Part shown: positions 42,305 to 45,346 of the stretch, piece by piece
Position numbering within the stretch: position 1 is the first letter of the stretch
Layout: each line of letters opens with the position of its first letter
Origin: an uncultured Anaerolineae bacterium
Lineage (GTDB): Bacteria; Chloroflexota; Anaerolineae; VGOG01
Assembly: GCA_964446635.1 (NCBI GenBank)
Contig: CAYUPJ010000001.1
Location: forward strand, 1-56,891
Length of the DNA: 56,891 bases
Direction of reading: 5' to 3'
Program-made: the position numbers and the translations under genes
Notes under the pieces: model-generated
Told to the model about the DNA's origin: nothing
What the model saw: only the letters and a program-made list of their open reading frames with translations
Databases searched by the model: none

Positions 42305-45300
42305 ATGCCTATGAGCAAAGTGTTTCTTTCTTCGACCTGGGTGGATTTGAAAGAACATCGTCGGGCGGTAATTGAGGCCCTGGAGCGATTGCGGCACCAG
42401 GGTCTGGAAGTGGAGTGGCGGGGGATGGAATACTTCGGGGCCAAAGACGATTCCCCGGCCAACACCTGCCAGGAGGCTGTGGACTGGGCCAACGTCTACG
42501 TTGGCATCTTTGGCCTGCGCTACGGTTCCCTTGACCCCCAGCGGGGCCTCTCCATGACCGAGTTTGAATACCGCCGCGCTGTCGCCCAGGGCAAGCACCG
42601 CCTGCTCTTCCTGATTGACGAGAAGTATGCCCAGCGTACCATGGCCAGGCATGCAGAGAAGGACTCCCAGGCTCAGGCAAAGCTGCAAAAGCTCAAGGCC
42701 GATGTCCTGGATCGGTGCGTGGAGGCCCATTGCACCGACCCCGGTGACCTGGCAGCCCGGGTGGTGACCGCCCTCCAGCCATATCTCCCCCCACCAACGG
42801 GACGCGCCAGCGTTGAGGAGCCATACCTGCGCTTCCTGGTGGAGGCCGACTGTCGCTACCTGCCCCTGCGCGGCCGTGACCCCCGAGAGAGCTCCCAGGC
42901 CGGCCTGCCTCTGCGGTTGGAGAAGGTCTACATCGCCCTCAACACCACTGAGCGACCTCCTGCCTCCAGGGAAGCAGCCCGCCCAGAAGCCTTTGGGCGT
43001 GAAGAGCAGAAGCCAATCTCGGCTCTGCGGCTGACTCTGGACAACCGGTGCCTGCTTCTCCTGGGTGAGCCTGGCTCGGGCAAGTCCACCTTTGCCGAGC
43101 ATCTGGCCCTCTGTCTGGCCGGTGAGCGGTGGCAGCCGGGCAGTGGCTGGCTGAAGTGGCTGACCACGCCTGACGCCTCCTGGTCTGATCGTGCCCCCTT
43201 GCCGGTGCGTCTACGCTTGCGGGAGTTCGCCGCCGATGTGGCTCGTCTGCCCACCGACGAAGGCCTGACCGGACAGGCCGAACACCTTCTGGCCTACCTG
43301 GAGAAGACCTTGCGGGCCGGCAACTTTCACCCCAACCTGCCTGCACACGTCCTTGGACTGTTAGATCGTGGCGATGTCCTGTTGGTGCTGGACGGGCTGG
43401 ACGAGGTCAGCGACCCCAATCGCCGCCAACGGGTGGCTGAGGCCATCGCTGATCTCAGCCACCACCGCTGTAGCCGTGCCCGCATTATCGTCACCTGTCG
43501 CCTCCGCCAGTACCCGCTAGACCAGGCCGGCCGCCCTGTGGCCCCCTGGTCTCTGCCGGGGTTCCGTGCCACCACTCTGGCCGACTTTGATGCCAGTCAG
43601 GTAGACACCTTCGTGGACCTCTGGTTTGGCGAACTGTGTGACCAGAAGCGTATCACCCCCGTTCAGCGCCAGGACAAGGCCACATCACTGAAGGCAGCCA
43701 TCCGCACCCGGCCAGACCTGCGGGCCATTGCCCCGCGCCCCATCATCCTCACCCAGATGGCCATCGTACACGACGTGCGTGGCGAACTCCCTCCCACCCG
43801 CTTGCAACTCTACATGGAATGTGCTGAATTGCTGTTGTGGGAGTGGGAACGACTGCGGGCCGAACAGGCGGGCCGGCGCGAAAGCGCCGACGAGTTCATC
43901 CAACGCCTGGGCGCCCCTGGTCTACGCCGAGAACATCTGCAAAGTGCCCTGGATCACGCCGTCTACGACGCTCACGCCCAGCCCGGCCAGGCCGCTGATG
44001 CTCCGGCCAACATCACCGAGGAAATCCTGAGCAAGCACCTGACAGTTTGCCTGGAGCGCACGGGTTTGCCCCGTCACGAGGTGGTGGGCCGGGTGCAGCG
44101 GTTCATAGACGAATACTTGCGGTTGCGCAATGGTCTCATCGTCCCCGCTGGCGAGGGAACCTTTCAGACCCCCCACCGCAGTTTCCAGGAGTTCCTGGCC
44201 GCCAGGCACCTGGCGGTCAACCGCATCCGCTCCTTCACCAGCGAAGTGCCTGGATTGGTCAGGCAGAACTATGACCTGTGGCGGGAGGTCTTCTTGCTGG
44301 CGGTAGGCCAGGCCGGACTCAACAACGCTGTGGATGCCATAGACCGTCTATGCCCGTTGGCTCTACCAGAGACTCCGGACGGCTGGCAGCATCTCTGCCT
44401 GGCCGGCCGGGCTCTCGCTGAGGTGGGCCTGCCCACAGTGCGCGGCGACGAGAAGGGGCCAGGTCTGGAAGAGCGTGTCGAGCGCCTGCTCTACCACACC
44501 ATGCGGGATACCGACGAGCATGACGTGCCTCACGACCCGCCTCGCGTCCCCATCCGCACCCGCGCCGACGCTGGCGAGGTATTGGACGAGCTGCGCTCGC
44601 TGCCGAAAGACCTGGACGCCTTCCTGCCAGTGCCGGCGACCAAACCTGCCTTCTGGATGGCCCGCTATCCCGTCACCAATGCTCAGTACGAACGCTTCAT
44701 CCAGGCGGGAGGCTACGGGGAGCGACGTTGGTGGAGCGACGAGGGCTGGAAGTGGCGCCAGGGAAAACCGCGTTGGGAGTGGCAGAGGACGGATCGGCCC
44801 GATTTCTGGGATGACCCTCGCTGGAATCGAAAGAGCTACCCGGTGGTGGGCGTCACCTGGTATGAGGCGGAGGCCTACTGCAACTGGCTGACAGAGCAGA
44901 TGCGAGAAGCGGAATGCAAGATTCAGGTGGTCAATGCCAACGAGGAGATCGGCGAGCTGCGACTGGAGAACTGTCGCGTGCGGTTGCCTACGGAAGAGGA
45001 GTGGTTACTGGCTGCGCGGGGGCAGGGGAGCCGGGAGTATCCCTGGGAGGGCAGTTTCGACCCGGCCCGGGCGAATACCAGTGAGAGCAACCTGGGTAGT
45101 ACTACACCTGTAGCCATGTATCCCGCTGGAGCCAGCACGCATGGCGTCTGGGACATGGCCGGCAACGTCTGGGAGTGGACTGGGTCATGGTATGATGAGA
45201 AGACCAAAGACTCCCGTGTGTTGCGTGGCGGGTCGTGGTTCTACGATCTGGACTTCGCCCGCTGTGCGTTCCGCGACTGGGACTACCCCGACTACTCGTA

Positions 45301-45346
45301 CCTCAGCTTCGGGTTTTGGGTCGTGGTTTCCCCCGGCTCTCCCTAG
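42305..45346 (+). CDS. DUF4062-NACHT-FGE/C-type-lectin STAND NTPase (NLR-like), the DGR variable protein
   Basis: N-terminus [19 protein letters not shown]...[11 protein letters not shown]...[18 protein letters not shown]. Walker A [9 protein letters not shown] (43064-43090) and Walker B [11 protein letters not shown]. C-terminal FGE-sulfatase motifs [37 protein letters not shown] and LRGGSW. ATG 42305 follows RBS aagggga. Confidence 0.88.
   Translation: [1013 protein letters not shown]
45213..45332 (+). repeat. DGR variable repeat (VR)
   Basis: 120 nt aligning to 46947-47066 with 20 mismatches, 19 of them at TR adenines. Covers the last ~40 codons of the NACHT protein. Confidence 0.9.

Follow-up and report, generated by a model that had tools for sequence, protein, structure and literature searches.

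The stretch of DNA analysed here, referred to below as the window, comprises 56,891 nt of contig CAYUPJ010000001.1 (GCA_964446635.1) from an uncultured Anaerolineae bacterium of the phylum Chloroflexota. It carries a diversity-generating retroelement (DGR). On the + strand the cassette consists, in order, of a target gene with the variable repeat (VR), a GC-rich hairpin, a reverse transcriptase (RT), the accessory protein Avd, the template repeat (TR) and a structured RNA. With a high degree of confidence, the locus can be described as a complete chromosomal DGR, belonging to a clade that occurs mainly in Chloroflexota and has the order target(VR)-RT-Avd-TR-structured RNA. The TR/VR pattern, all components of the element, covariation within its RNA and past homing are observed. 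The genes, repeats and hairpins are the following:

42305..45346, + strand: DGR target gene, 1013 aa, with DUF4062, NACHT/STAND NTPase and FGE-sulfatase / C-type-lectin fold
42317-42580, + strand: DUF4062 of the target, aa 5-92 (Pfam, 1e-20)
43049-43627, + strand: NACHT/STAND NTPase of the target, aa 249-441 (Pfam, 2e-10)
44639-45325, + strand: FGE-sulfatase / C-type-lectin fold of the target, aa 779-1007 (Pfam, 9e-47)
45212..45335, + strand: VR, with substituted positions at 45239-45308, an undiversified 3' block at 45309-45332, and C45333 as the fixed partner of TR A47067
45395..45421, + strand: GC-rich hairpin, 12-bp stem and AAA loop (DNA fold z = -4.7)
45428-45442, + strand: second hairpin, 6 bp with a GAA loop, after the GC-rich hairpin
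45493..46557, + strand: DGR reverse transcriptase, 354 aa, with YVDD, IGNLTSQ and equivalents of bRT K29, F66, R74, I181 and Q187
46562..46915, + strand: Avd accessory protein, 117 aa (NCBIfam NF033474 DivGenRetAVD, 97.2 bits against a cutoff of 80; Pfam bAvd, 2e-18)
46946..47069, + strand: TR, with 29 adenines and 11 AAC codons; A47067 is invariant and the predicted first templated nucleotide

The element was recognized by the relation between its two repeats. A preliminary description, made by hand, had paired VR 45213-45332 with TR 46947-47066, and the computed alignment of these segments is ungapped over 120 nt. It reproduces the 20 mismatches that had been reported, 19 of them at TR adenines, as well as the composition of the TR (29 A and 91 other bases, 90 of the 91 being identical in the VR) and the 11 AAC codons in the VR reading frame. 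When the mismatches are tabulated by TR base, 19 fall on A and one on C, with no spread over the four bases; if the mismatches were placed at random, 19 or more of the 20 would fall on the 29 adenines with a probability of 6e-14 (hypergeometric/Fisher). At the 19 adenine mismatches the VR has T in 13 cases, G in five and C in one, and the sole non-adenine mismatch is TR C47051 against VR T45317. All 29 TR adenines occupy codon positions 1 or 2. It had also been stated that mutagenesis of the adenines in AAC codons cannot create a stop codon; every TR codon was checked, and none becomes a stop by changing its A. The homology extends by one base on the 5' side, where A46946 faces T45212 in another A-site mismatch, and by three bases on the 3' side, where TR ACG faces VR CCG and hence A47067 faces C45333. 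No further VR-like copy exists on either strand of the window.

The diversity that this arrangement allows is considerable. At the DNA level, the repertoire amounts to 4^29 or about 3e17 sequences; at the protein level it is about 1e17 (15^12 x 4 x 4 x 3 x 4 x 4, our own arithmetic from the codon table). Up to about 1e17 variants could thus be displayed at 17 residues on the C-type-lectin ligand-binding surface of the target. The use of the adenines is not even. Among 822 AAC codons in the TR/VR pairs of the related loci L001-L160, the first A is substituted in 72% and the second in 49% (p = 1e-22), and a change of the second A to C is rare (8%). In the window (VR 45239-45308) the first A is substituted in 13 of 14 cases and the second in 6 of 15. 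Selection or sequence context may underlie this bias.

A repeat search reports the pair as direct repeats at 45206-45335 and 46940-47069, 82% identical and 1.7 kb apart. Such copies might also be left by an ordinary duplication or a gene-conversion tract, in which case decay of a second copy of the target's 3' end would have produced the 'TR', without any retroelement, and a 116-aa open reading frame (ORF) can in fact be drawn over it. The stretch beneath this ORF is a covarying RNA structure. The mismatches lie on the adenines of one copy only, the RT and Avd genes stand between the copies, and the same asymmetry recurs in about 90 independent loci. The base-specific asymmetry therefore refutes the duplication scenario, to which we assign a negligible probability.

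The two proteins encoded between the repeats are those of a DGR. The best match of the RT in the PDB is 8ub7 (E = 6e-55), the chain being Brt of Bordetella phage BPP-1, against about 1e-23 for group II intron RTs. The motif [I/V/L]GxxxSQ is a signature of DGR RTs, and bRT residues R74 and I181 promote adenine mutagenesis (PMC7826257). The signature is present as IGNLTSQ and the YxDD motif as YVDD, and both the catalytic residues and those linked to adenine mutagenesis are conserved. Avd supplies the accessory protein. The reading frames of the target, the RT and Avd are all intact and of normal length, and downstream of the TR there is a non-coding stretch of ~250 nt. The VR stops 11 nt short of the target's stop codon, at the C-terminal end of the FGE domain, so that it combines a position at the 3' gene end, a C-type-lectin/FGE fold and TR adenines at codon positions 1-2.

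Scans based on the RT yielded 80 loci in reference genomes, almost all of them metagenome-assembled genomes of Chloroflexota/Anaerolineae, and 80 loci in metagenomes; the closest RTs are 84% and 83% identical, respectively. TR/VR pairs were detected by self-BLAST and counted if at least 75% of the mismatches were at TR adenines. In this way 53 adenine-specific pairs were found among the window and the 80 genome loci (~60 loci with a looser filter), and in 38 of the 80 metagenome loci, many of which are on short contigs; in the latter, 673 of 728 mismatches are at TR adenines. About 90 related loci, mostly in Chloroflexota, thus have an adenine-specific TR/VR pair of their own. The order VR-RT-Avd-TR is kept in most relatives, and the TR lies upstream of the RT in a minority.

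The three closest loci, namely the window, the reference-genome locus L001 and the metagenome locus L081, allow the history of homing to be followed. Between their TRs the identity is 94-98%, and in the VR frame all three encode one and the same peptide; the VRs differ far more, at adenine columns. Between the VRs of the window and L001 there are 29 differences. Of these, 22 are at columns that are A in both TRs and six at columns where the TRs themselves differ, where the VR carries the base of its own TR in 6/6 cases for the window and 5/6 for L001; the remaining one is the C to T change of the window. Since each VR follows its own TR, information has flowed from TR to VR since the lineages split, and the combination of near-identical TRs with different VRs indicates that homing recurred after that split. 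The preliminary description had concluded from the pattern that mutagenic homing took place here in the past, a conclusion that now has the adjacent DGR components, the ~90 loci with the same pattern and the VRs that track their own TRs behind it. In L081, a 1-nt deletion is present at a TR-adenine position (~4810-4815; VR 4733-4853), which puts the last ~13 codons out of frame, so that the GFRVVVSP ending is lost. Decay, a rare deletion by the RT or an assembly artefact in a hypervariable region could account for it. The genes around the target-RT-Avd cassette of L081 are entirely different from those in the window.

The sequence 3' of the TR forms a structured RNA. Conserved motifs and stems became visible when the post-TR sequences of about 30 loci were aligned, and three helices are predicted by RNAalifold. 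Together with the strands described below, the following elements can be distinguished:

46928..46939, + strand: upstream strand of the stop duplex (predicted 'cPRT Stop'), GGGGGCAGACCG, between the avd stop codon and the TR; pairs with 47140-47151
47068..47076, + strand: template strand of the predicted template:primer duplex, CGATCCTCT, immediately 3' of A47067
47083..47121, + strand: stem-loop 1, a GCC:GGC helix around ACCGCA...TGCGGT (RNAalifold; covariation helices 1-3)
47128..47136, + strand: primer strand, GGAGAGCCG; G47136 pairs with C47068 and is the predicted priming nucleotide
47137-47139, + strand: linker GCG between primer strand and stop strand
47140..47151, + strand: downstream strand of the stop duplex, TGGTCTGTTTCC (pairing/covariation and permuted-locus control)
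47153..47186, + strand: stem-loop 2, of variable length, GGCCGACGGT...ACCGTCGGGC (RNAalifold; covariation helix 4)
47187..47198, + strand: A-rich single-stranded stretch, AAATACACAATA (conserved alignment columns)
47199..47254, + strand: terminal stem-loop 3, GCCCCGCCCC...GGGGCGGGGC (covariation helix 5)

In the first RNAalifold alignment 21 of 24 predicted pairs keep pairing through two-sided changes, and 19 of 26 do so in the alignment used to build the model. From 22 sequences, a covariance model, R1, was constructed. It has exactly one match in the window, at 47081-47257 with 107 bits, and one match each in 91/100 sources and in 55/61 further loci (146/161 taken together). In all 58 matches with a mapped TR, the match starts between -2 and +89 nt from the TR 3' end. 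In the alignment of the 91 matches, which leans towards the model because it was fitted to R1, 95% of the cells pair, against 69% after shuffling and 35-45% with slid partners, and 24 of the 26 pairs have changed on both sides. In helix 5, which forms stem-loop 3, this holds for 10 of 10 pairs, with 98% of cells paired. A strongly covarying RNA domain of about 150-190 nt thus follows the TR in this DGR clade; it has no match in Rfam (Rfam 15) at the gathering thresholds or at E <= 1. R1 can also serve as a search model for locating TRs.

Two long-range duplexes join this domain to the TR and its upstream flank. Folding of full-length upstream against downstream segments proved too noisy, and anchored 13-nt strands with controls from the same locus were used instead. 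In 36 loci, the 13 nt before a conserved CC(C/T)GG motif pair with a strand that lies a few nucleotides upstream of the TR. The resulting stop duplex has 11-12 bp and covaries heavily, its sequences being widely different between loci. Compared with 300 random segments of the same locus its median rank is 0.7%, and in the window none of the 300 does as well (0/300); the number of best pairs is 9.19 against 8.03 +/- 0.13 when loci are permuted. The primer strand ends 2-3 nt before the stop strand and pairs with the 8 nt that lie 3' of the invariant TR adenine. The optimal template:primer duplex begins at A+1 in 29/36 loci, and in the fixed register from A+1 to A+8 the positions are paired in 36, 36, 25, 33, 32, 31, 32 and 30 of the 36 loci. 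Covariation is clear, for example at A+2, with A-T in 24 loci, G-C in 11 and G-T in one. Altogether 83% of the cells are paired, against 63 +/- 2% for permuted loci (0/2000). An earlier candidate for this duplex, GCCAG (47083-87) with the GGC before the stop strand, was dropped, as in the RNAalifold prediction this GCC belongs to the base of stem-loop 1, where its partner is the GGC of CGAGGC. The primer strand, the stop duplex and the stem-loops of a DGR RNA are accordingly all found by covariation and permutation tests, while we infer the partners of the stem-loops: by position, stem-loop 1 is a candidate for the Avd-binding stem-loop and stem-loop 3 for the one that binds the RT.

The position where transfer begins can be narrowed down in two ways. 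First, A47067 lies directly 5' of the covarying template:primer duplex and is therefore the predicted start of the cDNA. By analogy with BPP-1, synthesis is predicted to be primed by G47136 and to take A47067 as its first templated base. The start-site adenine of the TR is opposite a C in the VR in 43/43 genome and 25/25 metagenome loci (68/68), whereas interior adenines, when substituted, become C in only about 15%. Second, none of the adenines that precede the start site by 5-19 nt is substituted (0/19 family-wide), against about 55% of those at least 20 nt upstream. Of these 19 adenines, eight occupy third codon positions at which every change is synonymous (CGA, GTA), and a further three synonymous adenines at 20 nt (GGA, one CGA) are likewise unchanged. 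Protein-level selection cannot therefore explain the invariance, and selection on Pro codons was rejected as the sole cause of the invariant 3' block. The final ~20 nt of the TR act like a block of homology that escapes overwriting, and they are the functional equivalent of the GC-rich element for the initiation of mutagenic homing (IMH). In the BPP-1 control, TR and VR do not differ through position 119; the fixed IMH/IMH* differences start at 120, beside the start G117 that is known from experiment. The start-site adenine and the ~20-nt undiversified zone thus define where transfer begins, and the former provides a one-nucleotide candidate for the determinant of homing direction.

The single non-adenine change of the window, C47051/T45317, is situated 16 nt before the start site, inside the undiversified zone. 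Relatives carry C in both repeats at this position, and the change is best read as a private mutation of the VR. It raises the question of whether the element is a fossil, which diversified its target in the past, is now inactive and holds a frozen VR allele. Several observations weigh against the DGR reading given above, or for a fossil. Through the C to T change the conserved GFR motif has become GFW, which could be a sign of drift in an element that is no longer active. A scan of 45300-47450 detects neither a sigma-70-type promoter nor an intrinsic terminator for the DGR RNA. The template:primer duplex of the window itself is weak, with 7/9 pairs, two of them wobbles, and not significant by energy alone. 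Moreover, the collections searched contain no sequence from the same species, exact-sequence look-ups of the RT and Avd being empty; a metagenome scan with the TR as query, its adenines written as N, gave no match. The frameshifted VR of L081, the closest metagenomic relative, shows that such cassettes can decay. On the other hand, none of the three reading frames is damaged, the RT retains the residues for catalysis and adenine mutagenesis, and every RNA element is intact, with the 107 bits to the family model already mentioned. The C to T change itself is in a zone that is never diversified, and therefore homing would not repair it. A defunct element appears improbable to us.

The prototype of this group is the DGR of BPP-1 (mtd-avd-TR-brt), and the resemblance of the window to it is extensive. 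Adenine-specific transfer from TR to VR, Avd, an IGxxxSQ RT (38% identical), a VR at the 3' end of a gene for a C-type-lectin fold and a GC-rich hairpin after the VR are all shared. The likeness extends to the RNA. According to Handa et al. (bioRxiv 10.1101/2023.10.23.563531), the RNA that follows the TR in BPP-1 begins with an Avd-binding stem-loop and a primer strand base-paired to the 3' end of the TR, the priming nucleotide being A56 and the first template base G117. Two linker nucleotides and a strand that pairs upstream of the TR ('cPRT Stop') come next, and the RNA ends with a short stem-loop, unpaired adenosines with a single-stranded 'Thumb Ring', and a long RT-binding stem-loop (bioRxiv 10.1101/2023.10.23.563531). 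The same order of stem-loop, primer strand, GC linker, stop strand, stem-loop, A-rich stretch and long stem-loop is found in the window. Its layout matches that of BPP-1 Sp 47-56, 57-58 and 59-70, which are primer strand, GC and stop strand, and its linker also starts with GC (Sp 57-58 = GC). By position, stem-loop 1 is the analogue of Sp 3-33, and the A-rich stretch 47187-47198 corresponds to the A-minor adenosines and the Thumb Ring. Even the upstream stop strand of BPP-1, AGGGCAGGCTG, resembles that of the window, GGGGGCAGACC. The RNA domain reproduces the architecture of the Bordetella phage ribonucleoprotein and lends support to a priming and stop mechanism that is conserved between phyla.

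There are differences as well. The order is VR-Avd-TR-RT in BPP-1 and VR-RT-Avd-TR in the window. BPP-1 is phage-borne and its target is a tail fibre, whereas the element in the window is chromosomal with a 1013-aa cytoplasmic-type STAND protein as target. The upstream stop strand is inside avd in BPP-1 and in the spacer after avd in the window. The first templated base is G117 in the phage, in contrast to the predicted invariant A, and a multi-base IMH/IMH* difference contrasts with the single fixed TR-A/VR-C of the clade. The R1 model of the clade does not detect the BPP-1 RNA.

The hairpin deserves separate mention. A hairpin/cruciform after the VR is needed for efficient homing of BPP-1 (Guo et al. 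2011, PMC3240598), and the hairpins of phage DGRs have 7-10 bp stems and GRNA loops at 4-34 bp from the VR (PMC3240598). The hairpin at 45395-45421 fits in form and is farther away, ~60 nt from the VR against 4-34 nt for BPP-1. GC-rich hairpins with 3-4 nt loops recur in the relatives at a median of ~57 nt after the aligned VR end, and a perfect stem of at least 8 bp follows the VR in 42/89 loci, the best stem in controls having a mean of 5.2 bp. With the 24-nt undiversified VR block followed by a GC-rich hairpin, the window has the cues of a target site, at a distance beyond the published phage range. The hairpin is thus a candidate for the target-recognition hairpin/cruciform of this DGR, and it could instead be an element at the RNA level.

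From these data we infer the details of priming and the route of integration, as well as the role of the protein discussed below. By homology with BPP-1, an RNA made up of the 3' flank of avd, the TR and the 190-nt downstream domain would fold around a complex of RT and Avd. The strand 47128-47136 would pair with 47068-76, and G47136 would prime cDNA synthesis opposite A47067. The RT would copy the TR faithfully except at adenines, where it would misincorporate, until it meets the duplex 46928-39 / 47140-51, close to the TR on its 5' side, and synthesis stops. The mutagenised cDNA would then replace the VR, with the ~20-nt undiversified 3' block as homology and the hairpin 45395-45421 as a target cue. 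It could be imagined that the fixed A marks the TR as donor only, and in this manner sets the direction of homing.

The target has the tripartite architecture of NLR-like proteins as far as its domains are concerned, with an N-terminal effector, a STAND NTPase and a C-terminal sensor. The DUF4062 domain aligns to the solved DUF4062 of KpSwz (10wc, E = 1.5e-7), the TE of SMTEFEY in the putative catalytic region being conserved. In the NACHT domain the Walker A and B motifs are GEPGSGKST and LLVLDGLDE. The C-terminal domain matches FGE-fold structures, including TvpA of Treponema denticola (2y3c, E = 3e-7). Among 47 full-length targets of the related loci, an FGE-sulfatase end is present in 47/47, preceded by NACHT in 39, a KAP NTPase in six and other STAND NTPases in others. 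The N-terminal modules vary (CHAT, TIR, HNH, EAD1, C39 peptidase), and in this set DUF4062 is found only in the target of the window. In a large protein search, this target forms a singleton cluster (P0001), next to more than a dozen other cluster representatives with the arrangement DUF4062-NACHT-FGE.

Several known proteins share parts of this design. Combinations of a DGR-diversified FGE-type lectin with NACHT/nSTAND NTPases occur in multicellular bacteria and have been proposed to be antigen sensors (PMC10907252; PMC7159879); the hosts listed include filamentous Chloroflexi (Dore et al. 2024, PMC10907252). The sensors of Dore et al. 2024 and Kaur et al. 2020 have in common with the target a NACHT/nSTAND domain, a C-terminal diversified FGE-type lectin and variable N-terminal effectors. 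In those systems two targets are described as common, in contrast to the one target and one VR here, and a DUF4062 N-terminal module has 0 mentions in PMC10907252 and PMC7159879. TvpA likewise has a domain of the FGE-sulfatase / C-type-lectin family with a VR at its end, though as a small lipoprotein, whereas the domain in the window is the sensor end of a large NTPase. The DUF4062 NADases Swarozyc and Evangelion (2026 preprints), bacterial NACHT proteins and Avs share the tripartite build of effector, NTPase and sensor; in these the sensor is a fixed repeat or auxiliary region, whereas here it is a DGR-hypervariable lectin domain.

DUF4062 has been described as a TIR-like NADase with anti-phage function (2026 preprints). 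By analogy, the target is likely to be an NLR-like sensor with a diversified lectin domain. Its variable lectin surface would bind a ligand, probably from an invader, upon which the NACHT domain could oligomerise and activate the TIR-like NADase domain, leading to depletion of NAD+. Taken together with the start-site data, this leads to a tentative proposal, for which the odds are modest: the invariant TR A / VR C would be a single-nucleotide equivalent of IMH/IMH* that sets the homing direction, in a clade that re-programmes NLR-like ligand sensors, and the protein encoded in the window would be a hypermutating innate-immune receptor with a TIR-like NADase effector in a filamentous bacterium. 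The DGR could also be active while its protein is not a sensor of invaders, serving instead to tune signalling or regulation, or in kin or cell-cell recognition within a filament. Regulatory roles have been proposed for cyanobacterial DGR targets (PMC7517822), and the surrounding genes are cell-envelope and glycosyltransferase genes with no recognisable defence island. The models of PADLOC leave the target unclassified, with only a marginal P-loop match (PtuA, E = 6e-4), and the NCBIfam family EruA scores 42 bits against a cutoff of 1000, so that neither set of models places the protein in a curated or experimentally validated defence family. Against such a role, the layout, with a putative TIR-like NADase domain, a STAND NTPase and a variable sensor, agrees with that of characterised anti-phage NLR-like proteins, anti-phage NADase activity is reported for DUF4062 proteins, and the N-terminal modules at sister loci are typical immune effectors (TIR, CHAT, HNH, EAD1). 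We consider a function outside immunity rather doubtful. With the immune receptor as a working idea, the union of DUF4062, a NACHT switch and a hypervariable lectin sensor in one protein makes the notion of a "DGR-diversified antigen sensor" concrete and testable.

As a whole, the locus is a textbook DGR, and its main value is that of a well-annotated example from a less-studied phylum, Chloroflexota. What it adds to the known DGRs is incremental: a clade-specific RNA model, a start-site A with a fixed C, a 20-nt undiversified zone and a DUF4062 effector.

The rest of the window contains rpoB, EF-G, EF-Tu, SecY, rpoA, sugar-nucleotide enzymes and glycosyltransferases, and neither tRNAs nor phage genes were found in it. 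From these surroundings of housekeeping and envelope-sugar genes, the element is therefore taken to be chromosomal. Right after the DGR RNA domain, at 47323-47415, there is a frameshifted fragment of ~90 nt (MKACLITGEFPPMQGGVGDF...) that duplicates the 5' end of a GT4 glycosyltransferase gene (50007-50101) with ~84% identity and a 1-nt indel, which suggests a rearrangement or insertion at that spot. About 3 kb upstream of the DGR, at 38745-39445, a small ORF is followed by an ORF of the TumE-toxin family (Pfam PF20126, 8e-15), and the two are likely to be a toxin-antitoxin pair.

Various repeats are dispersed over the window. A 39-nt inverted repeat (25131-25169 / 25821-25859), 97% complementary, encloses 651 nt of a ribosomal-protein gene region, and a perfect 20-nt inverted repeat (GGGGTAGGGGTGGGGGTGGG and its complement) is located at 2900-2919 / 3795-3814 with about 875 nt in between. 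Low-complexity repeats of the type GGAGGTTGGAGG / CTGACCATCCGACC are present at 22050-22143, 33137-33216 and 41300-41459; two of them together make up a 59-nt inverted repeat (33158-33216 / 41401-41459), and the 5' end of a GT2 gene contains one copy. A tandem array of 7-nt units (GCAGATA / GGCAGAT) at 35947-36009 separates two genes of the GDP-mannose-dehydratase family. Finally, tandem repeats of 192 nt, up to 97% identical, are found at 54458-55225 in the gene for a right-handed beta-helix protein of 1155 aa (53391-56858).

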